NCBI GenBank assembly: GCA_018831195.1
Contig: JAHJDP010000032.1
Span: 159,094 to 223,093 of the forward strand
Source of the DNA: Candidatus Eiseniibacteriota bacterium
GTDB taxonomy: Bacteria > Eisenbacteria > RBG-16-71-46 > CAIMUX01 > JAHJDP01
DNA: 64,000 bases
Reading direction: 5' to 3'
Part shown: in pieces, positions 6,508 through 48,001 of the stretch
How positions within the stretch are numbered: position 1 is the first letter of the stretch
How the letters are laid out: each line of letters begins with the position of its first letter
The notes under the pieces: model-generated
Told to the model about the DNA's origin: nothing
Seen by the model: only the letters and a program-made list of their open reading frames with translations
Database searches by the model: none
Made by a program: the position numbers and the translations under genes

Positions 6508-7749
6508 ATGAAAAGGCGGGTGGTGATCACAGGACTGGGTGTCCTCTCTCCTGTGGGACTCAATACCGGAGATTTTTGGGATTCCCTTATTGAGGGTCGT
6601 AGCGGTATTACGAGAATCACAAAGTTCGATCCTTCGGCGTTTTCCGCCCAGATTGCGGGTGAGCTGAAGGGATTCGATCCGGTCGCCTGTTTGGGAGCCA
6701 AGGAAGCTCGGCGTACCGATGCCTTTGTACAATATGCTCTTGTCGCCGCGCAGGAAGCGTTCGATCATGGCAAACTCAAATCGGAAGGAATCGATCCCGA
6801 ACGTTTCGGTGTCATTATCGGCTCCGGCATCGGTGGCATCAATACGCTGGAAACCCAACATTCAGTTCTCATGGAGAGGGGACCGGATCGGGTCAGCCCC
6901 TTCTTCGTGCCGATGATGATTGCCGACATGGCTTCCGGGCAGGTTTCCATGAAGATGAACGCGAAGGGGCCTAACTTTGCCACCGTTTCGGCCTGCGCCT
7001 CCGGGGCCCATGCCATTGGGGAAGCTTTCCGTGTCTTAAGGGAAGGTCTTGCCGATGTGATGCTGACGGGCGGTGCGGAAGCTCCCCTCTCTCCTTTGGC
7101 ATTGGCAGGCTTTTGTTCAATGAAGGCCCTCTCCACCCGCAATGACGATCCTGAGAGGGCGAGCCGGCCCTTCGACAAGGATCGCGATGGGTTCGTGATG
7201 GCGGAAGGAGCGGGGATCCTTTTGTTGGAAACTTTGGAATTCGCCAAAGCGCGTGGGGCGACGATTCTAGCAGAGCTGTGTGGGTATGGCGCAACGGCCG
7301 ATGCGCATCATCTGACCGCACCGGCGCCCGGCGGGGAGGGGGCTGCGCGCGCCATGAAGGGAGCCATGGCTGAAGCGGGAATGAAACCGGAGGATGTGGA
7401 TTATATCAACGCGCATGGGACTTCCACGCCTCTTAACGACCGATTCGAGACAATGGCTATTCAGCATGTCTTCGGCGCTCACGCGAAGAAACTCATGGTG
7501 AGTTCAACAAAATCGATGACGGGGCACCTTCTGGGAGCCGCCGGTGGAATCGAAACGGTTGCCTGCGTGCAATCCCTATTGACGGATATCGTCCCCCCGA
7601 CGATCAATTATGAAAATCCGGATCCCGACTGCGATTTGGACTTTGTTCCGAACGAAGCCCGGAGGAAGCCCGTTCAGGTGATACTGTCCAATTCTCTCGG
7701 GTTTGGGGGCCACAATGTCTCTCTCTTACTCAAAAAATACGTGGATTGA
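6508..7749 (+). CDS. fabF: 3-oxoacyl-ACP synthase II
   Basis: 413 aa KAS I/II with the active-site Cys context SACASG, HGTST and GHLLGAAG. Confidence 0.9.
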   Translation: MKRRVVITGLGVLSPVGLNTGDFWDSLIEGRSGITRITKFDPSAFSAQIAGELKGFDPVACLGAKEARRTDAFVQYALVAAQEAFDHGKLKSEGIDPERFGVIIGSGIGGINTLETQHSVLMERGPDRVSPFFVPMMIADMASGQVSMKMNAKGPNFATVSACASGAHAIGEAFRVLREGLADVMLTGGAEAPLSPLALAGFCSMKALSTRNDDPERASRPFDKDRDGFVMAEGAGILLLETLEFAKARGATILAELCGYGATADAHHLTAPAPGGEGAARAMKGAMAEAGMKPEDVDYINAHGTSTPLNDRFETMAIQHVFGAHAKKLMVSSTKSMTGHLLGAAGGIETVACVQSLLTDIVPPTINYENPDPDCDLDFVPNEARRKPVQVILSNSLGFGGHNVSLLLKKYVD

Positions 7750-9914: not shown

Positions 9915-9966
9915 ACCTTGAGAGCTCTGCAAGGGTGCGTCTCCTTCTATGACGGGTAATCGTTGA

Positions 9967-10446
9967 CTATTTGCCGCGGCCCCAGAGGCGCCGTTTCTTC
10001 TTTTCGTCTTTCTTCTCTTCCTCTTTCTTGCCGCTTTCGGCGCTGGGCTGAGCGGGCTGATCGCTCGGCGGCGCGGAGCCTATTCTGGGGATGGGCGCCT
10101 GGTCCGGATGGGAACCACGATCCCATAGCCGTCCGTCGCCGGATCGAACTTGGGAACCTTCTTCGCCGTCTTGAGGGTAGTACCAATACCCGTCATACCA
10201 CCAGGGTACGACATAGTATCCATACCAAGGGCTATATTCCCGATCGTAGTAGCCGCCGGAGTGGAGGAATGGATCACGGAAGTGATAGAGATCGGCATCA
10301 GCATGGCAGGTCGCACACTCATAGGTCTCTGCTTCCGAATTGGATTCGATCTGTGGATGGCGAAGCACCGTGTAACAGCCGACAAATAGGAAGGCGGCGA
10401 TGAGAATGAAGCAAGCGCCTGAGATGCACCGTTGCCATTTATTCAT
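9967..10446 (-). CDS. hypothetical lipoprotein with a single CXXCH motif and an aromatic-rich low-complexity segment
   Basis: ATG at 10446 is preceded by a GGGAG Shine-Dalgarno. Lipoprotein-type signal peptide (FILIAAFLFVGC). Contains ECATCH (CXXCH), then YYDREYSPWYGYYVVPWWYDGYWYYPQDG and a Lys/Glu-rich tail. Confidence 0.5.
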   Translation of the reverse strand: MNKWQRCISGACFILIAAFLFVGCYTVLRHPQIESNSEAETYECATCHADADLYHFRDPFLHSGGYYDREYSPWYGYYVVPWWYDGYWYYPQDGEEGSQVRSGDGRLWDRGSHPDQAPIPRIGSAPPSDQPAQPSAESGKKEEEKKDEKKKRRLWGRGK

Positions 10447-10643
10447 TTTCAATACTCCCATGTCCTTGGCCAAACTTGAATTCAAGTATAGGCTTGTGGG
10501 TCAGGAGTGTCAAAGAGACGCCATCTTCCACAAGACTGCAATCGAATCCCAATGCTGATAAGGTGAGGATTCCATCGTCTCAAGGATGCATACCCGCAAG
10601 GATCGGCGAGGGTTCCGATCTCGCGGGTTAGGAGGTTTACCGG
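10447..10643. promoter_or_regulatory. divergent intergenic region, presumed to hold promoters for the lipoprotein/OMP operon on the minus strand and the TPR-sigma operon on the plus strand
   Basis: 197-bp non-coding gap between divergently oriented starts. No specific promoter boxes were identified with confidence. Confidence 0.3.
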
Positions 10644-12431
10644 GTGCTGACAGGCAGGTGTATCGGCAGGCGTATCAATCGGTTTAATGGCGGTCGGGAT
10701 AGAAGCGAAGGTCGCCGGGCCTGTCGTTGGGCCGTCTCTTTCCTGCCCCTGATCTCATTCTTCTGGCTCAGCTGCGCCGGCTCCCCTCCGCCGCCATCGC
10801 CCTTGTTGCCGCCATCATTGTCGCCGGCTCCGTTCGCGGCTGATCTCGATGCCTTTACGGCCGGTCTCCATTTCGAGATGAAGGGAGAGTACGAGAGCGC
10901 GCTGGCAGCCTATGTCAAAGCGCTCCGCGCCGATCCAGAAAATGCCTATCTCCTGGCCCGCGCCGCCGCCTGCCACATGGAGTTGAAGCAGTTCGATGAG
11001 GCGGCCGCGATCGCCTTCCGTTCCCTCGAAGCCGATTCCACCCAGGCTGAGGCGCATTGGATCAGGGGATTGTCACTGGCGCGGTCCAATCTTCTCCAGG
11101 AATCTTTGCCTGATTTGGAAGACGCCGTCCGTCTTGAGCCTTCAAAGGATCTCTATCTGGGGAGCCTCATACAAGTTCTCACGGCGGCGGGTCAGATGGA
11201 TCTGGCGACGGAGACCCTCGAAAGGATCCTAGGAACAGGTTCCGAGTCCTCCCGTTGGCTCTTCCGTCTTGGAATGTACCTGTTACAGCGCAACCATGAA
11301 TCATCCGCCCTGAAAATGTTTCGCCGGGTTGTACAAAACGATCCACAGAATGCAGAGGCCTGGATCTTGATCGGTGATATTGAGGGCAAATCGGGAAGAC
11401 CCGCTGAAGGGGCGGAAGCCTATCTTCAGGCTCTGAGATTGCGACCGGAGAGCCCAAAGATCGCGCGGCAGGTTTTGCCTTTATTGATCTTCGAGGAGAA
11501 GTGGGAGGATGCCGCCGATGTCTTGAGCCTTCTCAATGACGGAAGCGGCTCCACGGACCAGGAGATGCTGAAACTCGCTCAGTGGCTCCTGAGCCAGAAC
11601 GAGCCAGCCAAGGCGAAGGCGCTCCTCGAATTCCTGAAAAAAGAGTCGTCCGACAGTTCCGAACTCCGGCGTGTCTGGATGCAAACCCTCATCCTTCAAG
11701 GATCGCCGAGTGATGTTTATCGGGCCAGCCGGGATTTGCTCGATCTCGTGCCTGGGGATGCCGAGGGGCTGCGTGTCGGTGCGGCGGCCATGGCTGACTC
11801 GGGACGGATCGAAGAATCCCTGGAAATGCTGGGGAATCTTCTGAAGAGGTATCCGAGGGATATTCAGGGATATATGCTCCTCGGAGAAATCGAATCCCGG
11901 AGAGATCATTGGGAGGATGCCCTTCAGGCCTTCAGGCTTGTCTTGGAGATCGACTCAACGAGGGTTCGGGCCCTCTTTCAAGAGGGTGTTTCACTGGAAC
12001 GTCTCGGCCGTTTTGATGAAGCGATCGATACCTTTCAAAGACTCATTGCCATGGAGCCTGATAACCATCAGGCTCTCAATTACATGGGTTACATGTGTAT
12101 CGATCTGGGGATTCATCTCCCGGAGGCGATGGAGTGGATCAAGGAGGCCCTGGAGATTAGGCCCGATACACCAGCCTATCTCGATAGCCTGGGGTGGGGT
12201 TATTATCAATTGAAGCAATATAACGACGCCCTGACCTGGCTGCTGAAGTCGGTTGAGGGAGGTGGAAATGATCCTGAGATCTATCTTCATGTTGCCGGAG
12301 TCTTGAAAGAATTGGGCCGGATCGACGAAGCTATCGACTGGGTGCACCGGGTGCTGCGGCACCGTCCCGATCACGTCGGCGCCCTGCAGTTTTTGCAGGA
12401 TTTGGAGGGGGTTCGGGAGGGCGTCCAGTGA
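10644..12431 (+). CDS. tetratricopeptide-repeat protein, secreted or lipoprotein
   Basis: GTG start 8 nt after an AGGAGG Shine-Dalgarno. Hydrophobic N-terminus, then many TPR-like helices (AxxYxxALxxxP spacing). The stop overlaps the ECF sigma GTG start. Confidence 0.7.
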   Translation: MLTGRCIGRRINRFNGGRDRSEGRRACRWAVSFLPLISFFWLSCAGSPPPPSPLLPPSLSPAPFAADLDAFTAGLHFEMKGEYESALAAYVKALRADPENAYLLARAAACHMELKQFDEAAAIAFRSLEADSTQAEAHWIRGLSLARSNLLQESLPDLEDAVRLEPSKDLYLGSLIQVLTAAGQMDLATETLERILGTGSESSRWLFRLGMYLLQRNHESSALKMFRRVVQNDPQNAEAWILIGDIEGKSGRPAEGAEAYLQALRLRPESPKIARQVLPLLIFEEKWEDAADVLSLLNDGSGSTDQEMLKLAQWLLSQNEPAKAKALLEFLKKESSDSSELRRVWMQTLILQGSPSDVYRASRDLLDLVPGDAEGLRVGAAAMADSGRIEESLEMLGNLLKRYPRDIQGYMLLGEIESRRDHWEDALQAFRLVLEIDSTRVRALFQEGVSLERLGRFDEAIDTFQRLIAMEPDNHQALNYMGYMCIDLGIHLPEAMEWIKEALEIRPDTPAYLDSLGWGYYQLKQYNDALTWLLKSVEGGGNDPEIYLHVAGVLKELGRIDEAIDWVHRVLRHRPDHVGALQFLQDLEGVREGVQ

Positions 12432-15244: not shown

Positions 15245-16276
15245 ATGCGGCTGAAAATGGGGATGAGTCTGCTTCTTCTGGGCCTCTTTCTATCGGGCTG
15301 CAGCAAACCATTTGAGTTGGCGAAGGGATCGACTCAGAGCGTCAGCCTCTTTACCGTGTGGCAGCGGCAGGATGACCGGGTTGAGTGGATCCGGGAGAGA
15401 CTCGAAGCGCCGGTCATTGTCGCCATCCGTCCTGAAAGAAACTTCAGTGTCGAGGTGGTTGAACCGAGCGGGTTACCATCCCGCCGGGAATGGCGGACAC
15501 ATATTTTTCTGGAGGATCTCAGCCAGAACGGGCGGATCCGGCAGACCGTGGAGAAAATTCTTGGGAAGGAAGAGCTGGAAAAACTCGCCGCCCTCCCCGC
15601 CGGTCATCGGATGCTTCGCGATGTCTGGGCTCGGGGCCAGACCATCCTCATCCTCCATTGCAAGGATCCAGAGGCCTTCCGGGACTATTTGGAGGAGAAC
15701 GGCGAACAGCTTATGCGGTCGCTCGAAGCGACCGTAACAATCGGTGTTGCAGAAACACTTTACATATCAGGCGAGCAGGAGGGGATGGAGCAATCGATCA
15801 GAGATAAGTATCATTTTTCCCTGCGCATCCCGGCGGGCTACAAGGTTTCTGAAGATCCGGAGAACAAGGTTATCCGAATGACATTTGTACGTTACAAGGG
15901 TCCCGCTCAGTTTCTCATTCTTCACACCCGGCCTAGAGAGGGTGTTTTTCTTGATCCGGACTGGGCTCTTAAATTCCGGGATGCCTTGGTGGTCCTCTAC
16001 AACGAGGGGGACCATGTTGAGTTTTCCCGTTCGGTGGGGTGGTTCGAGCCCTTTCAAGGTAATGAGGCGGTGCGGCTGAGGGGCTTATGGCAGAATGAAG
16101 AATACAATATGGGGGGCGGGTTTGAGTCGATCCTCTTTTTGCTTGAAGATCAGGCCATTTTTATGGATCTGGCGATCTTCAATCCGACGGGGGAAAAGCT
16201 GCCCTATATGAGAGAGCTGCGCGCTATCGCCTCCACCTTCAGAGTCGACGACCGGGAAGGTGACGACCCCTTGTGA
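15245..16276 (+). CDS. hypothetical lipoprotein
   Basis: ATG 4 to 6 nt after a GGAGGGA Shine-Dalgarno. Signal peptide with lipobox MRLKMGMSLLLLGLFLSGC. No recognisable catalytic motif. Its stop overlaps the aroB start. Confidence 0.5.
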   Translation: MRLKMGMSLLLLGLFLSGCSKPFELAKGSTQSVSLFTVWQRQDDRVEWIRERLEAPVIVAIRPERNFSVEVVEPSGLPSRREWRTHIFLEDLSQNGRIRQTVEKILGKEELEKLAALPAGHRMLRDVWARGQTILILHCKDPEAFRDYLEENGEQLMRSLEATVTIGVAETLYISGEQEGMEQSIRDKYHFSLRIPAGYKVSEDPENKVIRMTFVRYKGPAQFLILHTRPREGVFLDPDWALKFRDALVVLYNEGDHVEFSRSVGWFEPFQGNEAVRLRGLWQNEEYNMGGGFESILFLLEDQAIFMDLAIFNPTGEKLPYMRELRAIASTFRVDDREGDDPL

Positions 16277-17370
16277 AAAAGCTTCAATGCCGGACCGATC
16301 CACCTTACACAATCTATGTCGGTCCGCTGAACGATGGGGAGATCCGTGAGGCCCTCTTCGCCTTGGCACGGGAAGAAGAGTGGGCCTCCCCCGCCGTGAT
16401 CGTGAGTGACAACCATGTCGCCCCGCTTTATGCCGACCGCCTTCAAACCCTCCTCACCGATGCCGGACTGGCCCCAAGCCTCATGACCGTGGAGGCGGGG
16501 GAGGGCTCAAAGTCGATGGCGACCTTCGAGGTTCTCTGCCAGTCCTTCCTGGAACGGGGCGTCTGCCGCCGTTCGCCGGTTTTCGCACTTGGCGGTGGTG
16601 TTGTGGGAGATCTTGCCGGTTTTGCCGCGGCGACATTCTCGAGAGGGATGCCATGGGTTGTTGTTCCGACCTCCCTTTTAGCTCAGGTAGACAGTTCTGT
16701 CGGGGGGAAAGTCGCCATTAATCTCCCGGTGGCCAAGAATATGCTGGGATCCTTTCACCAGCCCCGGATGGTCATTGCTGATCCGAACTGCCTCAAGACC
16801 CTTCCAGAGAGGGAGTACCTGAGCGGTTTGGCGGAAATCCTGAAATCGGCGATTGTGGGGGATCGAGAGTTATTGACCCTCCTGGAGGAGAGAGGGCAAG
16901 CTATTCTGGATCGAGAGGTCCAGCTTCTAGAGGGGGTTGTCGACGCTTCCCTGAAGGTCAAATGCGACGTAGTAGAGAGGGACGAAAAGGACTATGGTCA
17001 CCGTCATGTTCTGAACCTTGGACATACCTTTGGGCACGCCATCGAGGCGGTCGCAGGATACGGCCGGTGGCTCCATGGAGAGGCTGTGGCGGTGGGTCTG
17101 TGCGCCGCCCTCTGGTTATCCTGGCGCATGGGTTCTCTGTCTGAGGAGGCCATCCTAAGAATCGAGAACCTCTTGACTCAATGGGGGTTACCCGTGAGGG
17201 CCTCCGGGCTCGATCCCGCCGAAGTGGAAAAGGCCATGGGGTATGATAAGAAATTTACGCGGGGCCGACAACGGTTCGTTCTTATAGAGGATTGGGGAAG
17301 ACCGGTCATTGTCCCGGATCCGCCCCGTGAACTCGTGAGAGAAACCATCCGGCGCATGGTCTCGGCATAG
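16273..17370 (+). CDS. aroB: 3-dehydroquinate synthase
   Basis: GGGVVGDLAGFAA…VPTSLLAQVDSSVGGKVAIN…HTFGHAIE are AroB motifs. GTG start overlapping the upstream stop. Confidence 0.85.
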   Translation: MKKLQCRTDPPYTIYVGPLNDGEIREALFALAREEEWASPAVIVSDNHVAPLYADRLQTLLTDAGLAPSLMTVEAGEGSKSMATFEVLCQSFLERGVCRRSPVFALGGGVVGDLAGFAAATFSRGMPWVVVPTSLLAQVDSSVGGKVAINLPVAKNMLGSFHQPRMVIADPNCLKTLPEREYLSGLAEILKSAIVGDRELLTLLEERGQAILDREVQLLEGVVDASLKVKCDVVERDEKDYGHRHVLNLGHTFGHAIEAVAGYGRWLHGEAVAVGLCAALWLSWRMGSLSEEAILRIENLLTQWGLPVRASGLDPAEVEKAMGYDKKFTRGRQRFVLIEDWGRPVIVPDPPRELVRETIRRMVSA

Positions 17371-17381: not shown

Positions 17382-17828
17382 TTGAAACGTGTTTTGGTGC
17401 TCCTGGGACCCAATCTAAATATGGTGGGCCGCCGTGAGCCTGGGATATATGGCGAGATCTCGATTGAGACCATAATGAAGGATTTGACCGGCGAGGCGGA
17501 GAAGCTCGGGATCCGTCTGGAGGTTTTTCAATCAAATCATGAAGGGGTTCTCATTGACCGTCTTCAGGAGGCCCAAGGTATCTATGATGGAATCTTGTTG
17601 AATCCAGGGGGATATTCACATCAAAGTATAGCCCTTCGGGACGCCGTGGCGGCTTGCGGAGTGAGTGTCATTCTAGTTCATTTATCCAATACTTGGGCGC
17701 GCGAATCGTATCGCCACCAGGATATTGTCGGATCGGCCTGCCATGGTGCGGTGATTGGCTTGGGACGTGTGAGCTTCTCCGCTGGATTGTGGGCCCTGTA
17801 CCGTTTGTCGGAGGAAAGGCCGGGCTAA
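17382..17828 (+). CDS. aroQ: type II 3-dehydroquinate dehydratase
   Basis: MKRVLVLLGPNLNMVGRREPGIYG…LLNPGGYSH…HLSN is the canonical type II DHQase sequence. TTG start. Confidence 0.9.
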   Translation: MKRVLVLLGPNLNMVGRREPGIYGEISIETIMKDLTGEAEKLGIRLEVFQSNHEGVLIDRLQEAQGIYDGILLNPGGYSHQSIALRDAVAACGVSVILVHLSNTWARESYRHQDIVGSACHGAVIGLGRVSFSAGLWALYRLSEERPG

Positions 17829-17860
17829 CGGCATTTCCAGAATTTGAAGGAGGAGGGGCG

Positions 17861-18424
17861 ATGGCATCGACCGGTGATTTTCGCAACGGGATGATGGTAA
17901 AAATCGATGGGGATATCTGTAAAATTGTTGATTTTCAGCATGTGAAACCGGGTAAGGGGGGGGCTTTTGTCCGCACCAAACTGAAAAGAGTGGTTTCCGG
18001 TGCTGTGATCGATAGAACCTTCCGGGCCGGTGAGAAGGTCGAGGAGGTCCGGGTTGAACGACACAAGATGCAGTATACCTACCGCGATGGCTCACACTTT
18101 CATCTCATGAATCTGGAAACCTATGAAGAGGTCGTGATGGATGAGGCCGCTATCGGCGATGACGCCAAATATCTTAAGGAAGGGACCGAGCTGGATCTTA
18201 TGATGAGTGATGATGGTCCTCTCGGCATGGAGCTTCCGACCTTTGTTGTCCTCGAGGTGACGGAAACTGACCCCGGATTTCGTGGTGACACAGCCTCAGG
18301 AGGCGGAAAACCGGCCACGATGGAGACGGGATTGGTCGTTCAAGTGCCGCTTTTCATCGAAGTTGGAGAACGCCTTAAGATCGATACCCGCAGCGGTGAG
18401 TATGTGGAGCGGGTGAATCCGTGA
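17861..18424 (+). CDS. efp: elongation factor P
   Basis: The ATG at 17861 follows GAAGGAGGAGGGG. MASTGDFRNGMMVKIDG…KPGKGGAFVRTKLK (the Lys-type loop) …LVVQVPLFIE. Confidence 0.9.
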   Translation: MASTGDFRNGMMVKIDGDICKIVDFQHVKPGKGGAFVRTKLKRVVSGAVIDRTFRAGEKVEEVRVERHKMQYTYRDGSHFHLMNLETYEEVVMDEAAIGDDAKYLKEGTELDLMMSDDGPLGMELPTFVVLEVTETDPGFRGDTASGGGKPATMETGLVVQVPLFIEVGERLKIDTRSGEYVERVNP

Positions 18425-18469: not shown

Positions 18470-18958
18470 ATGGATGTCGAAGAATTGAAGAGACTCATCC
18501 GTTTGGTGGAAGAGAGCCAGATCGACGAATTGGAGATCCGGAAGTTATGGTCCCGCGTCCGGATCACTAAGGCGGGAGCCCTGGGCCTCCATCCGTCTCG
18601 AGCTGACGGAGGCGGGTGCCCAGCCAGTGAGCCGATGGTTGTCTCGGTGCCATCAATCGTCACGCCGGCCGCGCCGGCGCCGGTCGGCAAAGAGCCGGAA
18701 GTGGATGAGGGGCTGGTACCAATTGTATCCCCTATTGTGGGTACGTTTTACCGAGCTCCGTCGCCTGATGCCGCGCCCTATTCGGATGTCGGCACAAGGG
18801 TCTCCCCGGGTCAGGTGGTCTGCATTGTGGAAGCGATGAAGCTGATGAACGAAATCGAAGCAGAGGTTTCCGGCACGGTTGAGCGCATTCTCGTTGAGAA
18901 CACGCAACCGGTGGAATTCAACCAGCCTCTCTTTCTCGTTCGTCCAGACGCTTCCTGA
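18470..18958 (+). CDS. accB: acetyl-CoA carboxylase biotin carboxyl carrier protein
   Basis: C-terminal biotinyl domain with the EAMKLMN motif. 162 aa. Confidence 0.9.
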
Positions 18959-18981
18959 GCCGCGGTAAGGAAGGAGGCTAC

Positions 18982-20145
18982 TTGAGCCTGAGGAATCTTT
19001 TGGAAGTGATGATGGAGAAAGGGGCATCTGATCTCCATCTCAAAGCCGGATCCCGGCCGGTTATTCGTATTGATGGACTTCTTCATAATACCGACTATCC
19101 CGTGCAGACTCCCGAATCGGTTGAGGAAATCTCCATGGAAATCCTCAAACCGAGCCAACAGGAGGCGTTGAGGGAAGAACGGGAAATCGATTTAGCTTTC
19201 GGTGTGCCCGGATTGGCGAGATTCCGTTGCAATATCTATTTTCAAAGAGGATCACAAGCCCTGGCGATCCGTTTTGTTCCGCTTGGGGTGCCTTCGTTGA
19301 GTGAGCTGAATCTTCCTCCGATCGTGGAAAATCTGGCCCTGTTGCCGCGCGGTCTGGTGCTCGTCACCGGCACCGTCGGCTCTGGGAAATCGACGACCCT
19401 CGCCGCCATGATCGATTTGTTAAACCGAACGCAATCGAGGAATATCATTACAATTGAGGACCCGGTTGAGTTTTTGCATCGGGATGACCGTTGCATTATC
19501 AACCAGCGGGAAGTTGGACAGGATACACCGAGTTTTGCCGCGGGGTTGAAACATGTTCTTCGCCAGGATCCCGATGTCATCATGCTGGGTGAAATCCGGG
19601 ATTCGGAGACAATGTCGGTGGCCCTTATGGCGGCTGACACGGGCCACCTTGTCTTGTCCACGCTGCACACTGTCGATGCGGCCCGCACCATCAACCGTGT
19701 TCTGTCGTTTTATCCGCCCGATCAGCATCAAGAGGTCCGGTATCTTATGGCGCAGACTCTCGCGGGCGTCGTGAGTCTGAGGCTGCTCCCGAGAAAAGAC
19801 AGCGCGGGTCGGGTTCCCGCCGCCGAGGTCTGTATCGCCACTCCGACGGTTAAAGAATATTTGATGGATGCCGCCAAATCGAATCGCATCTATGAGGCGA
19901 TGGCGGAGGGCTCGAACACATACGGCATGCAGATATTCGATCAGTCCCTTATGAAACTTTACTCTGAGGATCTGATCGGCTTGGATGTGGCTTTGCGCAA
20001 CGCTACCAACCCGACTGAGTTCAGACTCCGAGTCGCTGGAATCGAATCGGCGAGTGATGGGACTTGGAGGGGATTTCAGAAGGGGGCGGATAATCCGGAA
20101 GGGATGAAGGAGAAGAAGTCCCAGCACTTCGATTTTGATTCCTAG
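18982..20145 (+). CDS. pilT: PilT/PilU-family type IV pilus retraction ATPase homologue
   Basis: TTG start 4 nt after AAGGAGG. GASDLHL, Walker A GTVGSGKST, Asp box, Walker B DPDVIMLGEIRD and His box HLVLSTLHT are all present. Unusually, it is inserted between accB and accC. Confidence 0.85.
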   Translation: MSLRNLLEVMMEKGASDLHLKAGSRPVIRIDGLLHNTDYPVQTPESVEEISMEILKPSQQEALREEREIDLAFGVPGLARFRCNIYFQRGSQALAIRFVPLGVPSLSELNLPPIVENLALLPRGLVLVTGTVGSGKSTTLAAMIDLLNRTQSRNIITIEDPVEFLHRDDRCIINQREVGQDTPSFAAGLKHVLRQDPDVIMLGEIRDSETMSVALMAADTGHLVLSTLHTVDAARTINRVLSFYPPDQHQEVRYLMAQTLAGVVSLRLLPRKDSAGRVPAAEVCIATPTVKEYLMDAAKSNRIYEAMAEGSNTYGMQIFDQSLMKLYSEDLIGLDVALRNATNPTEFRLRVAGIESASDGTWRGFQKGADNPEGMKEKKSQHFDFDS

Positions 20146-20201
20146 GGGATGGGACACCATCCGCGCTGAAGGAAACCCGGCACCGCCAAGGAGGGCGACG
20201 A

Positions 20202-21572
20202 ATGTTTAAAAAGATCCTGGTGGCCAACCGGGGTGAAATCGCCGTTCGTATCATTCGGGCCTGTCATGAGCTGGGTATCGAAGTGGTCAGTGTTTACTCC
20301 GAGGGAGATCGGGACTCGCTTCATGTCCGACTGGCCGATGAAGCGGTCTGTATCGGCCCGGCCCCAAGCCGCAGCAGTTATCTCAACACCACCGCCATTA
20401 TCAGCGCCGCCCTCGTCACACGGTCGGAGGCCATTCATCCCGGCTATGGATTTCTTGCTGAAAACGCCAATTTTTCCGAAGCCTGCGAGCAATCCGATCT
20501 CGTCTTCATCGGACCGCGACCCGAGGCTATTCGCTTGATGGGTGACAAGGCGATGGCCCGGAAGGCGATGCAGGAAGCCGGCGTTCCTGTTGTTCCGGGA
20601 AGCGACGGTATCATTGAATCGCTTGAGCAGGCCCGTAACGTAACCCAGAAAATGGGCTTTCCCATGATTATGAAGGCGAAGGATGGGGGCGGTGGCAAGG
20701 GGATGCGGATTGTCTGGAGTGAATCGGAACTGGAGTCTGCCTTCGCAATGGCCACAGCGGAAGCTGAGGCGGCCTTCGGCAGCGGTGCTATGTATATGGA
20801 ACGATTCCTCGAAAAACCCCGGCATGTAGAGATCCAGGTTGCGGCGGATTCGGAGGGGAATGTCGTCCATTTTTATGAAAGAGATTGTTCTATTCAGCGG
20901 CGGCATCAGAAGCTGCTTGAGGAGTCGCCTTGTCCGATTCTCACCAAAGAGAAGCGCGCACAGCTGACCGATACGGCGGTTCGCGGCGCCCAGGGAATCG
21001 GGTATTCCAGTTTGGGCACCATGGAATTCCTGCTCGATGAGGACGGCAGTTTTTATTTTATGGAGATGAATACACGGCTTCAGGTTGAACATCCCGTCAC
21101 CGAAATGATAACGGGAAGGGACCTTGTTCGGCTTCAGATTTCGATCGCCGCGGGAAATTCCTTGCCGTTCCTGCAGCAGGATATTCAATTGAGCGGACAC
21201 GCCATTGAATGTCGGATCAACGCCGAGGATCCCCGCCGCAATTTTCGTCCGGTTCCGGGCCCGATCCGTTTCTTTCATGCGCCCGGAGGGCCGGGTGTGA
21301 GGGTTGATTCACATTTGTACAGCGGATACAGTGTTCCATCCCACTATGATTCTCTCTTAGCGAAGATCATTGTTAAAGATGATGAGCGTGGCGCGGCGAT
21401 TGCGCGGATGAAAAGAGCCCTGGATGAGCTGGTGATCGAAGGCATACCGACAACAGCGACCTTCCATATCGATGTGATGCAAAATGAAGATTTTATCATC
21501 GGGAAAAATGTCGATACCGGATTCCTTCGGAAGTACATGCCACAATATGATTCGAGCCGGAAAAAAGAGTGA
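20202..21572 (+). CDS. accC: acetyl-CoA carboxylase biotin carboxylase subunit
   Basis: MFKKILVANRGEIAVRIIRAC… ATP-grasp and biotin carboxylase motifs. 456 aa. Confidence 0.9.
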   Translation: MFKKILVANRGEIAVRIIRACHELGIEVVSVYSEGDRDSLHVRLADEAVCIGPAPSRSSYLNTTAIISAALVTRSEAIHPGYGFLAENANFSEACEQSDLVFIGPRPEAIRLMGDKAMARKAMQEAGVPVVPGSDGIIESLEQARNVTQKMGFPMIMKAKDGGGGKGMRIVWSESELESAFAMATAEAEAAFGSGAMYMERFLEKPRHVEIQVAADSEGNVVHFYERDCSIQRRHQKLLEESPCPILTKEKRAQLTDTAVRGAQGIGYSSLGTMEFLLDEDGSFYFMEMNTRLQVEHPVTEMITGRDLVRLQISIAAGNSLPFLQQDIQLSGHAIECRINAEDPRRNFRPVPGPIRFFHAPGGPGVRVDSHLYSGYSVPSHYDSLLAKIIVKDDERGAAIARMKRALDELVIEGIPTTATFHIDVMQNEDFIIGKNVDTGFLRKYMPQYDSSRKKE

Positions 21573-21583: not shown

Positions 21584-22669
21584 TTATCTGTGAGCCCGCC
21601 AAAGCAGGAAGAGACCGATTATAGAAAATGTGATATTCCCAAGCCATGCCGAAAGAAGGGGTGGGAGGGTGGCATGATACCCGAAGGCCTGTCCGACCCG
21701 GATGAAGGCGAAGTAGGCGAAACCCAAAAAGAGCGAGAGGCCGACTCCCAGTGCGACATTGCCTCCCCGCCTGTTGCGGAGCGAGAGAACCGATCCCAGT
21801 AACACCATGACCAGACTGCTGAACGGGAATGATCCCCGTATGTGATAATTGACCTCATATTTCTGGACCCGCACGCCCCCCTCGCCGAGACGGCAGATAT
21901 ATTGACGCAACTGTGTACGGCTCATGTAGAGCGGATCACCTTCCGGCCGCGCAAAATCTTCGGGTCTTTCCTCAAGGCGGGAATCGGCATATTTGTTGAA
22001 ACGGACCCCGATTTCCTGCTCTTCTAAAAAGCGACGCAGGATACCGGTGCGGAATTCCCAAATCTCATTACGCCAGGTGGCGCGCTGGGCGTCCAACCGC
22101 CACTCCAATTCCTGGGCGCCCTTCTTGGGATGCTGAACGGAAACAGTTCTGAGAATTTTGGTTGGGGCTTCATACGAAGCCGCCAGATAGATCCGGCCCA
22201 TGTGGCCGAGAAGGAGGATATCGCTGCGGCTGGCGCCCGATGTATGCTGGCGTCCGCGGATCTTGGTTCGATAAAGCTCTTCTTGCATGCGCGTCGTGTT
22301 CGGTGTCACCTGTTCGTTGATCAGCAGGGTCCCGACGGAAATGGCCGCCCCGGCCACAAGAAGCGGAGCGAGGATACGCAAGGGTGTGAATCCGGAGACC
22401 TGCATCGCGGTCAGCTCTCCCCATTTTTTAAGCTGGCCGAGGGAGAGAACGGCTCCCAACAACAGCGCGATGGGGATGACCTCGATGATGACCAGGGGAA
22501 GCCCAAAGAGGTAATACTGAATAACCACAGGGATAGAGGCTTTGTGATCGATAAATATATCGATTTTTTCGAAAAGATCGACGATGACAAAAATGCCGAC
22601 GAAGGCGACGAATCCGATGGTGGAGAAGAGTAGAAACTCTCTCAGAAGATGTCGATCAAGGATTTTCAC
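21584..22669 (-). CDS. lptG: LptF/LptG-family LPS export permease
   Basis: YjgP/YjgQ-family sequence. I chose the GTG at 22669 (VKILDRHLLREF…) because it lies 8 nt downstream of the lptF stop and parallels the lptF start. The longest ORF would overlap lptF by 91 nt. Confidence 0.7.
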   Translation of the reverse strand: MKILDRHLLREFLLFSTIGFVAFVGIFVIVDLFEKIDIFIDHKASIPVVIQYYLFGLPLVIIEVIPIALLLGAVLSLGQLKKWGELTAMQVSGFTPLRILAPLLVAGAAISVGTLLINEQVTPNTTRMQEELYRTKIRGRQHTSGASRSDILLLGHMGRIYLAASYEAPTKILRTVSVQHPKKGAQELEWRLDAQRATWRNEIWEFRTGILRRFLEEQEIGVRFNKYADSRLEERPEDFARPEGDPLYMSRTQLRQYICRLGEGGVRVQKYEVNYHIRGSFPFSSLVMVLLGSVLSLRNRRGGNVALGVGLSLFLGFAYFAFIRVGQAFGYHATLPPLLSAWLGNITFSIIGLFLLWRAHR

Positions 22670-22677
22670 CGTGTGGC

Positions 22678-24030
22678 CTACTTCCCCGTACCGAATGCGC
22701 ATGTCTTCCAGGTCAGATAGATGCCCAACAAACCCAGAATAATATTCGGCAGCCACATCGATACCCAAGGAGGCAAGATAGCCCGGTCCGCCAATTGTTC
22801 TCCTCCCACAAGGGCCAGGTAGTAGAAAAGGAAGAATCCGACGCTGATGAATCCCGCCGCCATGCCGCCCCTCCGCGATTGAATACCTAATGGAGCCCCC
22901 AAGAGAACAAAAATGATACAGGCGGCCGGAATCGAAAATTTCTTCTGTATCTCAACTTTGAACTGAGCGATTCGTTTTCCGGTGGCGAGAACCTGCAGCT
23001 CCTTTCGGCGCGCTTCCTCAACCCAGCGCCTTTGCTTCGGCCCCACCATCGAATCGGGCAGGACCGATTGGACCGTTGCGGGGCGCAACCAGGGGATCCA
23101 TCGCAGCAGCCTGGGAAGCGGCTTTGGCGCTGGGCCCGGCAGCTGGCGAAAATCGGTGAGCCCAAGCGTGGCCAGAGCCGTGTCCCGCTCCGCTTCATAT
23201 TGACCCGCCTCGGCATGCAGCTCTTCTATCTTTTCTACCATCATCGGGATCGACATCTCCCGTTGACCACGGGACCGGCGCACCGGGTTGGCTTGCCCCC
23301 GTTGGGAATTGTCGGTGATATTCATGGTTTGCCTTTCGAAGTGCAGGCGCCGGTATGTCGTGCCGCCTCCCTCGGCCTGAGCCTCATGAACCTCGCCGTC
23401 TTCCAATTCAAGGACAAGAATTCCCTGCTCCGGCTTGTAATGAAGAAAACCCTGTTTGGCCAGAATGGTCCGGGGCTGGGTCGAGCCCATGGAAGAATCA
23501 AAAATCATAACCTGCTGCATCCTTCCCGATCGGTCATCAAGCCGGCTGATAAACAAGGTGTAACCTGGAAAGTCGTCGATGAAGACTCCTTCCTGAATCT
23601 GTGCCGTTGGTCGGGTTTTGTTGACTTGTACGATGAGGTTGGCGAAGGCATGATTTGTATCGGGTAGTATGTAATTATTGAAGAGCGCCAGGGCGGCGGC
23701 AATGATCACGGAAAGGATCAGGGAAGGCATGATAATCTGGGTGAGAGAGACACCCCCGGCTTGGAGGGCCAGAGCTTCGTTGTCCTGAGCCATCCTGCCG
23801 TACGTCATCAGGACGCCGACGAGAACGGCACAGGGTACGCTGAGGGCCAGCATCCACCCGAGTCCCAAAATATACATCCGGGCCACGGTGAGAAAGGGGA
23901 TCCCCTTGCCGATGAAGAGATCGAGGTAGTCCAGCAGAAAATCCATCGATAGGAGCGCGGTCACAACGCCCAGCCCGAGCAGGCTCGGCCAAATGAGGGA
24001 TCGGATGACGTAGCGTTGCAGGATCGTCAC
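22678..24030 (-). CDS. lptF: LptF/LptG-family LPS export permease
   Basis: YjgP/YjgQ family. GTG start at 24030 (VTILQRYVIRS…) is preceded by GGAAAGGGG. The 54-codon N-terminal extension of the longest ORF is not family-like. Confidence 0.7.
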   Translation of the reverse strand: MTILQRYVIRSLIWPSLLGLGVVTALLSMDFLLDYLDLFIGKGIPFLTVARMYILGLGWMLALSVPCAVLVGVLMTYGRMAQDNEALALQAGGVSLTQIIMPSLILSVIIAAALALFNNYILPDTNHAFANLIVQVNKTRPTAQIQEGVFIDDFPGYTLFISRLDDRSGRMQQVMIFDSSMGSTQPRTILAKQGFLHYKPEQGILVLELEDGEVHEAQAEGGGTTYRRLHFERQTMNITDNSQRGQANPVRRSRGQREMSIPMMVEKIEELHAEAGQYEAERDTALATLGLTDFRQLPGPAPKPLPRLLRWIPWLRPATVQSVLPDSMVGPKQRRWVEEARRKELQVLATGKRIAQFKVEIQKKFSIPAACIIFVLLGAPLGIQSRRGGMAAGFISVGFFLFYYLALVGGEQLADRAILPPWVSMWLPNIILGLLGIYLTWKTCAFGTGK

Positions 24031-24174
24031 GAAACCCCTTTCCAGCGGTTCGCTCGCGGCTGAAAATCCGCCCGGTGGATGACTTTTGAACTTTTCCCCA
24101 ACCCCAGAGTATAGAATGCGGGGCCGGAAGGGAACCGAGTCCTTGAACCCTCTAACCTTATCGCTGTTCCGGAG
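24031..24174. promoter_or_regulatory. divergent promoter region between lptF (minus strand) and the giant OMP gene (plus strand)
   Basis: 144-bp non-coding gap between divergent starts. Confidence 0.3.
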
Positions 24175-27100
24175 ATGACCGGTAGTATTCACTACAAAAA
24201 ATGGGGCCGCAAGGCCGGTCTAGTTGGGATCATCACGGGTATCTGCCTGTTGATATTCTTCGGACTATCGCAGGGGCTACCTCAAGAAATGATTCCCGCA
24301 CCGGATCAGCTGGCGCCCGGTGTCTTATCGGGGGACTCAACAGAGGTTGATACCCTCGAAATGTCGGCGGAGGGAGAAATCTCTTCGGCTCAGGATACCG
24401 CAGAGCCCGATTCTCTCCCGGCGCCGATCACGGCCGCCATGGACCCCCTGATGGGCCCACCGGTTGCTTTGATCCCGGAGTCCGCCGATGCACTCCCGGC
24501 GCCGATCACGGCCGCCATGGACTCCCTGATGGGCCCACCCGCTCCTATGCTTCCCGATTCCCTGCCGGAGATAACGGTGACCGTCGCGCCGAAAGCTCTT
24601 CCCAGTCCAAGGGCCGGAACAGATGTGGAGACCATCCAAGCCGAAACCTTTGAAGGAGACAGCTTGAAAATAAGTCCCCTCTGGGACTTTATTCCCCGGT
24701 GGCATCCAAGTGATGATCTGCTGTTTTTCCGAATCTATAGAACGAACCGGGCGCGCGCTTTTATTTTGGATACCCTCGGACTCTATCATGAGAAGTTTCC
24801 TGTTTCAGACACGACAGGTTTTTCTATCATTTTCCCCGAAGATATGGGGATTAGGGATCGCGAACGGACGACCACTCAATATGCGCCGGATATCAACAAC
24901 CGGACCATCGTGCGATACAAACTCATCCGCGATGTCGCCCTCGGCCTCAGGATTCAGGAAACATATGATCAATATCTCGAGAGATTGACCCGCCTAACGA
25001 TCCACAAGATCTGGAGAGAAGAGGTCAAAAAGACGCTGGCGGAGCAGGCTGATCTGGGAAGCAAAGCCGGATTGGTGAAAATCGACCTGCCGGTCGAGGT
25101 CCCATCGCAACTCTCTCCCATCTTTGGAAAGGGGAAACCGAATCTTTCGGTTCGGGGAAGCGAGAAGATCTCTATCGGCGGAACATCACGCTGGCATCCC
25201 AACCGCCCCGTCAACGAGTTCCAACGGAGGGAATCCAAATTTCCACAGCTGGATATGAAGCAGGAATTGAACCTGCGCCTTTCGGGAAATATTGGAGACA
25301 AGGTTTCCGTCGACGTCGATCAAAACAGCGCGGCGGTCACGCCCCTCGAAAACCGGATCAAGATCCACTACACCGGTTATGAGGATGAGATCATCCAGCG
25401 GGTTGATCTTGGAAATACAAGTCTCAGCCTTCCCGGAACCCGTTACGTCTCCTACGGCGGCAGCCACCAGGGGCTCTTTGGAATTAATGCCCAGGCCAAG
25501 ATGGGGGATGTGGGGCTGAATATGATTCTCTCAAAGCAGGAAGGAGAGACGGCCTCGAAAACGGTGACCCGATCCAGTGAAATGACGACGATTTTGATCA
25601 AGGATTTAAATTATCAGGGGAATCAGTATTTCTTCTTTAGCGACCCGAATTTGAATCCAACCAATATTGATGCCAACTCAGTCTTTGTCTTCGTTGACGA
25701 CGCCAATGGGTATAACAATACACAGACCGGCGCCATTCATGGATTTGCGACATTAGACGGATCATATGATCCACAGAACCCGACTGCCGGCGCGGTTTAT
25801 GAAGGAGATTTTGATCAACTTCATTTGAAAGATGATTTCCTCCTTCAGACCGACCTCTACTTCGGCCACATGGTTCTCATCCTGAACCAGCCCCTCAGTA
25901 CAGATGATGTTCTGGCTGTTATGTACAAGACGACCAGCGGATTCCAAGTGGGCGGCATCGACGGTGATAGGCTCATCGCGAAGATGATCCGGCCCTCGCG
26001 CAGTGATTCGGACTATGATCTTACCGATTTGACATCCGGCGTGTGGGCTTCAACGCGCCATCTGGAAATGAAGAATATTTATTGGCTCGGCGGCCGCGGC
26101 ATTCTCGAGGAAAGCCTCGAGATAAAGGTCCGCCGCGAGCTGACCTCCGGTCAGCAGATTGATCCGTGGAAGGAAGGACGCTTCAGCTATCTCCAGATCC
26201 TCGGCGTCGACCTGCTGGAGCAGACAGGAGCCTCATCATGGGAGCCCAGCCTGGAGGGGGATGATATCGTCGATCCTCAATGGATCGATCCGGAGGGGGG
26301 ATTCATCATCTTCCCCACGCTTCGGCCTTTTGATCCAAGTCCGGCGGATAGCCTGCGGATGTACGGTCCCGGGGGAATCATGGCGTCGCAAGGCGTCAAT
26401 CCTGATTCGATCCCGATCCTGGCTCCATCTGTCAGAAATTCCGATGTCTATGATGCGAAGGCATTCGATGATGATCCCCTGACCCACAGCAAGTTCTACC
26501 TCGATGTGACCTATCGCAGCCCCGTCACAAGCCTTCAAATCGACGCCTTTAACATTATTGAAGGGTCTGAGGTGATTACCTCAGGCGGCCGGACGCTGTC
26601 CCGGGATCGGGATTACCGGATCGATTACCTGACCGGTGATATCGAGATCCTGCCCGCGGCGAATCTGTCGGAAGATGATGAAATCAAGGTCAATTATTCG
26701 ACGATCCCCTTCGCCGGGGGAGCCGATAAATCTCTGTTCGGTTTCGCCGCGGCTTACAAACCGGAGGGCTCCCCTCTCGCGCTTTCCTCAACCTGGGTTT
26801 TTGACAGCCAGGGATCACAGGATCGAAGACCACGATTGGGGCAGGAGCCCCGAAGGACCGCCGTCGGCGAGCTGGCCATGAGCTACCAAACATCACCCTG
26901 GTTCCTGACCTCCCTGATCGACGCCCTCCCCGGTGTTGATGCGCGGGCGAGAAGTTCCCTCTCGATAGACGCCGGAGTGGGGATGAGCATGCCCAATCCC
27001 AATACAAAAAACCGCCTCTACCTGGATGACTTTGACGGCACCAACGAGACTCAAGATATCTCCGTCAACCGGCAGGCTTGGCGGCCCTCATCGATCCCGC

Positions 27101-30100
27101 AGGGTGTCTTCGGAGAGAATGAAACAGAGAGGGCGGGAAAGAGGGGCGAGATTTGGTTCTACTCGCCGTTGAATGTTGTTCATGAGGGGAATCTTCAGCC
27201 AACCCTTAAAGAAACGGAGGCCGATGACAGCAAGACGGTTCTGGAGATGAAAATATTCCCTTATGGCACGAGCGATGAAGATCGATTCACTTCTTGGAAC
27301 GGGGTGACGCAGGCGATCTCCCGCCGGGACATTGATCTTTCACAAGCTCAATTTCTCGATGTCTGGATAAATGATAAGCACCAGTACCAAGAGGGTGTGG
27401 ATCCCTCAACCTACCGGCAGGGTGTTCTGCATCTCGATTTCGGGATTGTAAGCGAGGACGCCGTCTGGAAGCGCCGGAATCCGAGATCCGACGATTTTAT
27501 TTTCGCTAACAACCCGGCTGAGCCGCCGAATCTGGAGCTGGACACAGAAGACAAAAACCTCGATGGGCAGCTCGATCAATCTTCTGGTGAGGGGGAGGAT
27601 ACGGGGCTTGACGGGATACCCGATGGACAAGCCGGAGATGACCCTTTTGATGATTGGAGTTTTGATAAAGAGGATCGCCAGGACGACCCCTGGATCTATG
27701 GACATGTGAACGGTACGGAGAAAAATGGCCGTCTGGATACGGAGGATCTGAATGGCAATGGCCTTCTTAATCAGAGTGAGGCCTACTTTGAATTTACCAT
27801 TCCATTGGATGATACGACGATTGTCGAGACCGATATCTATCGTGATTTCGGCGGCGGCCGGTGGGTCGATGAAACAAATGCTTGGAGGCGTGTGCGGATT
27901 CCAATCAGCGCCGCCGCAGATACGATCGGTTCGGCGGCATGGAATAAAATACAGCATGTTCGTCTTTGGACGGAAGGTTTTAGAGACACGACCAATTGGA
28001 TTCAGGTCGGTGGGATCCAGATGATTGGAAACCGGTGGCTCGATGATCCGATCCTGAAGGCCGATGGAGATGTTGTCAGCGATAGCTTCCTTAATGCAAA
28101 TAACGAAGCCTTTTTCCCCGGTGTTCTCAATAACAAGGAAAACAGCGATATTTATACGCCGCCCTTTAAAGTTCGAGTTCAAAACGGAGTCGATGAGCGT
28201 GAGCAATCCTTGACACTGGAAATGCGAAATATGCCCCCGGGTCACTCCGCCCAGGTGTACCGCACCTATGCCAGGGGCCAGGATTTCATAACCTATTACG
28301 AGACGATGGAGTTTTATCTCAACCGGCGGATGGAGCAGGAGAGCGCCGAGGTCGATTTTTACATTCGATTGGCCAAAGATGTCATCAGCGATACGACAAA
28401 CTATTATGAATACCGCATTCCAGTTAAACGTGGGTGGGAGTTGATCACCGTTCCCTTGGCCGATCTGAGCGCACTGAAACTTGTTCAGGATTCCACGGAG
28501 TATGTCGAGCGGATCCTGCCCGACGGTGGTATCGTCAGCATGAAGGGCAAGCCGACTCTTACCAGCGTGGGCCGCATCGCCATGGGTGTTCGGGTGCAGG
28601 GTGATACGATGGTCGAGCAGGGAAATGTCTGGGTCGATGAATTGCGTCTGACAGGTGTCCGGAGGGATACGGGGATCGCCGGAAGGTTCAGCCTTTCCGC
28701 CAAGCTGTCCGATGTCGCCGAGGTGAATTTGAACTATGAACGCGCCGACGCCGACTTCCTCCAGGTGGGCTCCCCGAAGGGATCCGGCTTCACGAGGACA
28801 TTGACCGGGCTCAATTCGCGAATCAATATGGAACGCTTTATCACGTGGTCCCGCCTGGTTCTGCCGGTCTCGTTCGGATTTCAACAGGACAAGAGAGTTC
28901 CAAAATACAGGGTCAACAGCGATATCGAATTGAGGGGGCAGGAAACCGACCGGGATATCTCCGAATCCGCGACTCGGAATTTCCAAATGCGGATCAGCCG
29001 CGTGCGGACCGATAATCCATTACTGAAGTATACCATTGATGCCATGTCGGGGAGTTATACATATAATTGGAGTGGGAAAAGCGAACCGTTGAGCCAGGAT
29101 ACGACGCGATCATCACAATACAGCTTTTCCTATGCGCCGCAGGTTTCATTCCGGGGCTTGAAAGTATATAAGAATACGATGTTCAATCCCGTACCGACGA
29201 GTTTCGGGATCACATCCAGTTACCACAAAAGCGAATCGGTCCGATACCAGAGGATCAACAGTGATTTGGCACAAGATTATGAGCGTCTTGACCGCCAGGC
29301 GAAACAGAAATCGGCCGCATTGAGCACCTCTTTGGGCTTCAAACCGATCGGTCCGATAAGTTACTCACTGAGCTCCAGCCGGGATCTTATGGTGAAGGAA
29401 AAGATGCCGATTCTCGGTTTAGCGTGGGGACGCGAAACATCGAGAAAAGAACAGGTCTCGGCGAGCACATCAGTCAGGTTCTTAAGCTTTCTACTGGGAC
29501 CCAAGATTACTCCGTCGGTAAGCTTCACCGGGCAGTCGACCCTTGATCTCAACCGGCCCGGCAATGCGGGGGACAGTCTCGGTGTACGGATTAATACATT
29601 GAGAAATTCCCGATCCACATCTTTGTCGGTGCGTTTTCCGATTAAGGAGCTCTTCGCCCGGTTCTCCGGAGGCGGTTCTTCAAAAAATTCAATTCAGGAA
29701 GGCAGAGATAAGGGCGGAGGCCAGGATAGAAATGAAGAAGATGATGAAGAAACGCAGGTTGGGGATGGGGGAACAACGCAGACCCGGCAGCGCAAGCGAT
29801 CGGGTCCCTCGCCGCTCGCCAGGCTGCTCACTGTCGGTAATCTCAATGCCTCTTACAGCAAAAACCTGAGTACGAGCTACAACAGGGCTCAAGGCATACC
29901 TGATTTTATCTATCGGCTGGGCTTAACCAATGATCCCGGCAAGAGCGTTAAACAGTTGGATGGAGCGACTTCCTTAACAGGGGATGGGGATAATCTATCC
30001 CTGAAGACCGATTTTACCTTCATGAAAGAAGTCCGGGTCTCGACGAGTTATCAAAGAAACAATACCGACACACGTCAGATCGGAGGCGTCAGCCATTCAA

Positions 30101-47998: not shown

Positions 47999-48001
47999 AC
48001 C

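Follow-up and report, generated by a model that had tools for sequence, protein, structure and literature searches.

The PilT/PilU-family ATPase gene considered here lies between accB and accC, which encode two subunits of acetyl-CoA carboxylase, in a stretch of 64,000 nucleotides of contig JAHJDP010000032.1 (assembly GCA_018831195.1, Candidatus Eiseniibacteriota bacterium), called the window below, and its closest described relatives are found in Thermus, Geobacter and Myxococcus. In Thermus, PilT1 is the primary motor and PilT2 a secondary one, which makes retraction faster and more frequent (PMC12393216); the solved structure 5FL3 is that of T. thermophilus PilT2 (PMC6153414), in agreement with the title of the PDB entry. 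In G. sulfurreducens, pilT1 (GSU0146) occurs in a recA-pilT-recX arrangement and is co-transcribed with recA (PMC5065972). In M. xanthus, PilU (MXAN_1995) is a second retraction motor and is encoded in a cluster with rpsI, recX and bamD; it ends in a disordered region that includes a short helix, a contact of its C-terminus with the N-terminus of PilT has been predicted, and it supports PilT in force generation (PMC13584747). Finally, P. aeruginosa PilU is described as an accessory, PilT-dependent motor (PMC6762196, PMC6821130).

In the window, a gene of this kind was found in the following setting, identified by direct reading and by searches of the open reading frame (ORF) translations against NCBIfam profiles, with their curated cut-offs, and Pfam:

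18470 to 18958, + strand: accB, biotin carboxyl carrier protein of acetyl-CoA carboxylase, with a TGA stop (TIGR00531, 163.9 bits, cut-off 115.2; Pfam Biotin_lipoyl)
18971 to 18977, + strand: Shine-Dalgarno sequence AAGGAGG of the ATPase gene, 4 nt ahead of its TTG start codon (direct reading)
18982 to 20145, + strand: gene for an ATPase of the hexameric PilT/PilU family, 387 amino acids (aa), TTG start (TIGR01420, 440.9 bits, cut-off 319.1)
20188 to 20194, + strand: Shine-Dalgarno sequence AAGGAGG before the accC ATG at 20202 (direct reading)
20202 to 21572, + strand: accC, biotin carboxylase subunit of acetyl-CoA carboxylase (TIGR00514, 701.8 bits, cut-off 626.5; Pfam Biotin_carb_N, CPSase_L_D2, Biotin_carb_C)

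The three genes lie on the same strand, with spacers of 23 nt between accB and the ATPase gene and 56 nt between the latter and accC, and the AccB translation contains the biotinylation motif EAMKLMNE. The TIGR01420 match spans positions 2-343 of the 343 in the profile (Pfam T2SSE, E 1.3e-46) and places the protein in the PilT/PilU family. Its TTG start is supported by the homologues, which begin at the same position (MSLRNLL... versus MNLKGLL...) in an alignment of 18 of them, the same set being used for motif invariance and for the consensus. The coordinates, gene identities and accB/accC flanking given in an earlier note on this DNA all hold, and the profile scores lie well outside what chance would give.

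That note had also described the ATPase gene as an unusual insertion. As far as a local or recent event is meant, these words are misleading, as the synteny check that it proposed has brought to light the same order in 33 independent loci besides the window itself, with carriers labelled Eisenbacteria, Latescibacteria, Krumholzibacteriota, Gemmatimonadota and Fibrobacteria (about five phylum-level groups). The sample consisted of nine homologues at 56-76% identity, whose gene context was looked up, and of 80 loci from a genome scan with one genome per species, in which the acc context was judged by tblastn with the window's own proteins. All nine look-ups show Biotin_lipoyl (accB), T2SSE and biotin carboxylase (accC) in this order, the carriers including metagenome-assembled genomes (MAGs) labelled Eisenbacteria, Latescibacteria 4484_7 and Krumholzibacteriota (GCA_016931295.1), as well as the complete genome CP070727.1 (4.13 Mb) and a contig of 6.45 Mb (from ERZ25072999). 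OY970303.1 and GCA_020431765.1 are further carriers of the arrangement. In the genome scan, the accB-pilT-accC context was present in 24 of the 80 loci, four of which meet a contig end on one side; some 20 of the 24 carriers are Gemmatimonadota, and the rest are further Eisenbacteria, one Fibrobacteria MAG and other MAGs.

The idea of an assembly chimera, or of the recent horizontal insertion of a foreign gene, rests only on the prior expectation that accB and accC adjoin, and its probability is practically nil. The same order recurs in 33 assemblies made independently of one another, which come from different samples and phyla and include the two long sequences mentioned above; there is no break in GC content or skew at the ATPase gene, whose composition matches that of its neighbours (GC 0.537, third-position GC 0.616) and whose codon-usage distance (0.138) is among the lowest values in the window; and the acc-context genes fall roughly by taxon label in the PilT tree. 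The independent assemblies and the even composition thus exclude the chimeric window that the earlier note had allowed for. The placement of the ATPase gene in the accB-accC slot belongs to an ancient gene order that several phyla have inherited vertically, and the gene is neither a misassembly nor a recent insertion nor a decaying orphan. The arrangement is indeed routine in relatives, a possibility that the note had raised together with a documented function, and no function has been documented for it; no paper describing accB-pilT-accC was found, and the arrangement appears to be undescribed in the literature. What is new is therefore a member of a known subfamily in an apparently undescribed conserved setting, the analogous recA-pilT1-recX case having already been published. 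The conserved position may serve as a synteny marker linking the carrier phyla.

In most related loci accB is preceded by aroQ, the string of the Gemmatimonadota being aroQ-pepP-accB-pilT-accC-ComB-like-ftsK, and the gaps around pilT in the relatives range from 6 to 134 nt. Strings resembling aroQ-(pepP)-efp-accB-accC, without pilT, exist in Bacillus and Pseudomonas; compared with this classical string, the window (aroB-aroQ-efp-accB-[pilT]-accC) has one extra gene between accB and accC. In a close relative from JGI metagenome 3300041080 (L089:1471-3935), the gene is duplicated in tandem within the slot (accB-pilT-pilT-accC), the two copies (392 and 409 aa) sharing 70% and 76% identity with the ATPase of the window. 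Two exceptions were found within the clade: a Fibrobacterota MAG (L029:491-3435) with the order pepP(M24)-pilT-FecR, without accB or accC, and a Gemmatimonadota MAG (L034:7137-9775) in which pilT and accC are separated by an inositol-monophosphatase-like gene and additional sequence.

Some further observations were made on individual loci. In Latescibacteria and Krumholzibacteriota relatives (L004:4872-5000, L085:4883-5000, L088:4867-5000), the accB-pilT spacer measures 118-134 nt (23 nt in the window); behind the accB stop comes a conserved CCTTGCAAA, and a TATAAT-like box is also present in L004. The locus L086 (GCA_035631035.1, contig DASQJL010000112.1), labelled 'Candidatus Binatia', matches the synteny of the Eisenbacteria loci (HtrA, aroB, TPR, aroQ, accB, pilT, accC, ComB-like, LptF/G, SprA), and its label looks doubtful. 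In a Gemmatimonadales genome (L018, ~9300-11500), accB-pilT-accC is followed within a few kb of accC, on its own strand, by a recA homologue, so that the two housekeeping contexts of this PilT subfamily come close together there.

As regards the protein, the following features were located in the gene:

19369 to 19395, + strand: Walker A (P-loop) GTVGSGKST, residues 130-138 (motif search; invariant in the 18 homologues)
19453 to 19470, + strand: Asp box IEDPVE, residues 158-163 (motif search; invariant in the 18 homologues)
19567 to 19599, + strand: Walker B DPDVIMLGEIR with the catalytic Glu, residues 196-206 (motif search; invariant in the 18 homologues)
19639 to 19668, + strand: His box TGHLVLSTLH, residues 220-229 (motif search; invariant in the 18 homologues)
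19840 to 19869, + strand: TPTVKEYLMD, residues 287-296, in place of AIRNLIRE and one residue longer (reference alignment)
20014 to 20142, + strand: C-terminal extension past the end of canonical PilT, with a conserved part, NPTEFRLRVAGIESASDGTWRGFQ, and a variable tail, predicted to be disordered, ending in F-D-F-D-S

The ATPase is intact and of the PilT fold, with all the catalytic motifs present, which agrees with the earlier reading of a complete gene with its TTG start after AAGGAGG and its four boxes. The AF2 model, calculated from an 18-sequence alignment (mean pLDDT 76.7), shows the two-domain PilT fold, with a PAS-like N-terminal and a RecA-like C-terminal domain; towards the C-terminus it has a short helix (360-368), followed by disordered residues 369-387 (pLDDT ~31). 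Its top Foldseek matches are 5FL3, 6OK2 and 6OJX (TM 0.82-0.91), 5FL3 being the best (TM 0.82/0.89) and Geobacter PilT4 also being among the best. The same 5FL3 is the best sequence match of solved structure (E 3.7e-116).

The window protein is 55% identical to Thermus PilT2, 51% to the Myxococcota PilU type (L054, L044), 50% to the Geobacter PilT1 type (L016), 45% to both Geobacter PilT4 and Aquifex PilT, 42% to P. aeruginosa PilT and 38% to P. aeruginosa PilU, the two P. aeruginosa reference sequences having been checked against PDB entries. In a neighbour-joining tree with 100 bootstrap replicates, the genes in rec and other contexts form a clade (100%), and so do the canonical PilTs of P. 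aeruginosa, Geobacter (PilT4) and Aquifex (86%); the gene of the window groups with the former and with Thermus PilT2 (65% for all the loci plus Thermus PilT2). Acc-context genes and rec-context clade are mutual nearest relatives, with a tentative branching order among them. Both groups have in common the replacement of AIRNLIRE with a one-residue insertion (T-x-T/A-I/V-K/R-E/D for AIRN), the segment YGMQTFDQSL, and the extension NPxEFxLRxxGIxSxSDxxW, followed by a variable tail often ending in (I)E(R/K)F. On sequence grounds, the window ATPase belongs with the Thermus PilT2, Geobacter PilT1 (GSU0146) and M. xanthus PilU (MXAN_1995) type subfamily, an informal clade.

TPTVKEYLMD does indeed replace AIRNLIRE, as stated in the earlier note and as seen in the alignment of this region with P. 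aeruginosa PilT, Aquifex PilT, Geobacter PilT4, Thermus PilT2 and P. aeruginosa PilU. To judge from the alignments, the absence of AIRNLIRE is a trait of the subfamily and not a sign of decay, because all the nearest relatives lack it and carry the conserved C-terminal extension. Of the suggestion that the protein may be a PilU-like or repurposed paralogue, the first half is plausible, since it groups with the Thermus PilT2, Geobacter PilT1 and Myxococcus PilU types; the loss of the motif, in turn, is no sign of repurposing, because Thermus PilT2 and Myxococcus PilU, which also lack it, still act in retraction (PMC12393216, PMC13584747).

A comparison with the known motors, system by system, gives more detail. 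Thermus PilT2 (5FL3) likewise has no AIRNLIRE, its ATPYVRELLKD corresponding to TPTVKEYLMD of the window, and it shares the G-M-x-T-F-D-Q segment; its Walker A, however, reads GPTGSGKST instead of GTVGSGKST, and the alignment with its solved chain of 368 residues stops at query residue 351, the GIxSxSDxxW extension not being seen there. The Geobacter PilT1 type, at ~50% identity and in the sister clade, has the same motif replacement and C-terminal extension and is also found inside a housekeeping pair, but one of recombination genes and not of acetyl-CoA carboxylase, and in Desulfuromonadales, Nitrospirota and Acidobacteriota instead of Fibrobacteres-Chlorobi-Bacteroidetes (FCB)-type phyla. 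Among the Myxococcota members of the sister clade, L044 and L054 match the described context and tail of MXAN_1995, and it is on these two traits that their orthology to it rests, the MXAN_1995 sequence lying outside the alignment; they differ from the window protein in a myxobacteria-specific tail of ~100 residues, against ~20-40 in the window, and in a gene that is not beside accB/accC. P. aeruginosa PilU (9N32) also lacks AIRNLIRE and has GMQTFDQ and a C-terminal extension with a similar L-R-L-x-x-x-G-S-E-S-D, but its 38% identity is below that of the canonical PilTs (42-45%), its Walker A is GATGTGKST and it sits in a pilT-pilU pair. Canonical PilT (P. aeruginosa 3JVU, Aquifex 2GSZ, Geobacter PilT4 5ZFQ/6OJX) shares the TIGR01420 family, the fold and the four ATPase boxes; it differs in having AIRNLIRE and in ending ~40 residues earlier, and the Geobacter PilT4 gene lies beside pilB.

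Two more specific identities were rejected. That of a canonical primary PilT is contradicted by the absence of AIRNLIRE and by the separate canonical clade, and orthology to P. aeruginosa PilU by the score to 9N32 (266.5 bits, 38% identity), which is below that of all the PilT structures, and by the tree, a functional analogy with PilU being still plausible. Of the features of Pseudomonas/Vibrio-type PilU, the window protein shows the absence of AIRNLIRE and the C-terminal extension, the latter conserved in the acc-context and rec-context clades and resembling the DLRLMIKLGSESD stretch of P. aeruginosa PilU; it does not show the pilTU pairing, its neighbours being accB and accC.

The remaining loci of the genome scan (47-52% identity) are not beside acc genes. 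A recA-pilT-recX-alaS context is found in Geobacter/Oryzomonas, Desulfuromonadales, Nitrospirota and many Acidobacteriota (confirmed in part with Pfam), and for it only the Geobacteraceae case was found in the literature. The Myxococcota members, with their disordered tail of ~100 residues, lie beside rpsI, bamD and a UvrD-type helicase. The subfamily gene is, in this way, located in a housekeeping string and away from pil clusters in each case: accB/accC here, and recA/recX/alaS or rpsI/bamD (rpsI-pilT-bamD) in the sister clade. The gene in the window takes its place in a coherent and little-studied PilT-like subfamily, which is habitually wedged in essential housekeeping operons of many phyla. 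The recA-pilT-recX-alaS loci include L014, L016, L019, L020, L033 and L070, besides the many acidobacterial ones, with pilT at ~6001-7100 in each.

The setting in the window also bears on how the gene may be expressed. Upstream of accB the string contains:

16273 to 17370, + strand: aroB, 3-dehydroquinate synthase (Pfam DHQ_synthase, DHQS_C)
17382 to 17828, + strand: aroQ, type II 3-dehydroquinase (Pfam DHquinase_II, E 2.5e-47)
17861 to 18424, + strand: efp, elongation factor P (Pfam EFP_N, EFP and Elong-fact-P_C over residues 72-253 of a longer ORF)

The true start of efp is the ATG coding for MASTGDF, internal to the longer ORF at 17654-18424. The whole same-strand string runs HtrA-like protease, DUF4837, aroB, aroQ, efp, accB, ATPase gene and accC, with gaps of 11-56 nt from aroB on and an overlap of 4 nt between DUF4837 and aroB; accC closes it, as lptG/lptF (21584-24192, minus strand) converge on it, with sprA beyond. 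A consensus scan of the + strand in the two gaps flanking the ATPase gene gave no promoter- or terminator-like site, a result which means no more than 'no obvious signal', since the overall counts equalled the expectation from shuffled sequence. The co-transcription of accB, the ATPase gene and accC proposed in the earlier note is likely, because the gaps are short, the genes have their own ribosome-binding sites and no such site was found on the + strand.

On these grounds, the gene probably encodes an accessory (PilU-like) retraction ATPase of type IVa pili, belonging to the PilT2/PilT1/Myxococcus PilU subfamily and expressed by read-through from a housekeeping operon. It would be transcribed together with aroQ/efp-accB and accC, in the order aroB-aroQ-efp-accB-pilT-accC, which would give a steady, housekeeping-level expression. 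Its role as a retraction motor of type IVa pili is suggested by its relatives; the protein would dock under the PilC platform and probably add speed or force to a primary PilT, the pilus machinery presumably being encoded elsewhere in the genome. The link with acetyl-CoA carboxylase would be historical and regulatory, a matter of steady expression and of a gene hard to lose without polar effects, and not biochemical, because the housekeeping context differs between the sister clades (accBC, recA/recX/alaS, rpsI/bamD). A functional link to fatty-acid synthesis finds no direct support here and seems rather improbable. A Gemmatimonadota survey reports type IV pilus genes in this phylum from all environments but the marine one, and PilM at ~0.83-0.95 per genome in its MAG groups (PMC10581226), both of which fit a pilus role of the ATPase. 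For Eisenbacteria, this survey was the only source on type IV pili found in the literature, and no paper on pili was found for Latescibacteria.

It is also conceivable, if unlikely, that the ATPase is not an accessory motor at all, but the primary and possibly the sole retraction ATPase of these organisms, their 'PilT'. Its score well above the PilT/PilU cut-off and its overall greater closeness to the PilTs than to P. aeruginosa PilU would agree with this, as would its high conservation (mean column identity of 64% across the alignment of 18 homologues) combined with an expression that would be of the housekeeping type. Moreover, retraction in M. xanthus persists in the absence of PilT, presumably by means of PilU or another paralogue (PMC13584747). 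The protein lacks, however, the AIRNLIRE of primary PilTs, and wherever an organism with a member or close relative of the clade has been studied (Thermus, Myxococcus, Geobacter), its main motor is a canonical PilT distinct from that protein.

Several points weigh against the accessory-motor explanation. No pilin, PilB, PilC, PilD or PilM-Q was found in the 64 kb window, and the flanks of the acc-type loci examined hold no pilus genes but housekeeping ones only (pepP, ComB-like phosphatase, FtsK, DapA, TPR). Geobacter PilT1 failed to rescue a P. aeruginosa pilT mutant (PMC5065972). The bootstrap value that joins all the loci with Thermus PilT2 is moderate (65%), and the monophyly of the acc-context genes is weak (50%), being obtained only when the Fibrobacterota exception L029 is included. 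An internal promoter may be present in the long accB-pilT spacers of the relatives from Latescibacteria and Krumholzibacteriota. Finally, that the exact accB-accC slot has been kept across phylum-level distances, and even through a tandem duplication, could be due to selection for co-expression with acetyl-CoA carboxylase and not to inertia.

It is common for pilT genes to lie apart from pilB/C and pilM-Q, as is the case of P. aeruginosa pilTU. The statement of the earlier note that there are no pil genes nearby is correct for the window, and little weight attaches to its word 'orphan', given that pilT is so often unlinked.

The last of the points against the accessory motor leads to a different explanation, a functional coupling or repurposing in which the role of the ATPase is tied to the neighbouring genes and not, or not only, to pili, selection for co-expression keeping it in its slot. 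Such a coupling might consist in coordinating the lipid supply from acetyl-CoA carboxylase with the removal of pilins into the inner membrane, or might involve another membrane platform. The exact slot in 33 independent loci of about five phylum-level groups, surviving even tandem duplication, speaks for it, together with the sister clade likewise locked in a conserved interacting pair, recA-recX (PMC5065972), the failed complementation by Geobacter PilT1 and the lack of pilus genes nearby. Against it, the differing contexts of the sister clades (accBC, recA/recX/alaS, rpsI/bamD) argue against a link specific to fatty acids, the closest characterised relatives work on type IV pili, the clade has its exceptions in L029 (pepP-pilT-FecR) and L034 (other genes between pilT and accC), and the protein has no domain or motif pointing to a new partner; on balance, this explanation seems rather improbable. 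A more general and slightly less probable version would have the subfamily kept in essential two-gene modules (accB-accC in FCB-type phyla, recA-recX elsewhere) since its dosage must track these modules, which would mean a role beyond retraction. The coupling of pilin return to the membrane, or of envelope remodelling, to fatty-acid supply would be one example of such a role, and a pilus-independent membrane or DNA-uptake ATPase would be another.

If the ATPase is an accessory retraction motor, constitutive expression of such a motor is probable in the lineages labelled Eisenbacteria, Latescibacteria, Krumholzibacteriota, Gemmatimonadota and Fibrobacteria, and this would bear on surface motility, adhesion and DNA uptake in mostly uncultured groups. 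For fatty-acid biology little follows in practice, unless a functional coupling can be demonstrated.

As for the rest of the window, the remaining genes belong to core metabolism and the envelope, and include sucD, plsX-fabH-fabD-fabG-fabF, rnc, a pair of extracytoplasmic function (ECF) sigma and anti-sigma factors, rimP-nusA-infB, truB, ribF, pnp and an exopolysaccharide cluster. SprA is the translocon of type IX secretion; a SprA homologue of 2181 aa is encoded at 24175-30720, directly after the divergent lptF/lptG pair, its relatives having Pfam SprA_N, and this neighbourhood is kept in the Eisenbacteria-type loci. The ORF at 44589-45557 gave only a weak, sub-threshold Pfam match, and that at 49609-50868 no Pfam match. 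The exopolysaccharide cluster is large (45727-62513) and comprises a Wza-like exporter, a Wzz-like protein, AAA_22 and AAA_31 ATPases, a phosphodiesterase-family protein and an LPG_synthase_TM protein, as well as a Wzy_C ligase-like protein, a Bac_transf priming transferase, a PMT_2 protein, three GT4 glycosyltransferases and ManC.

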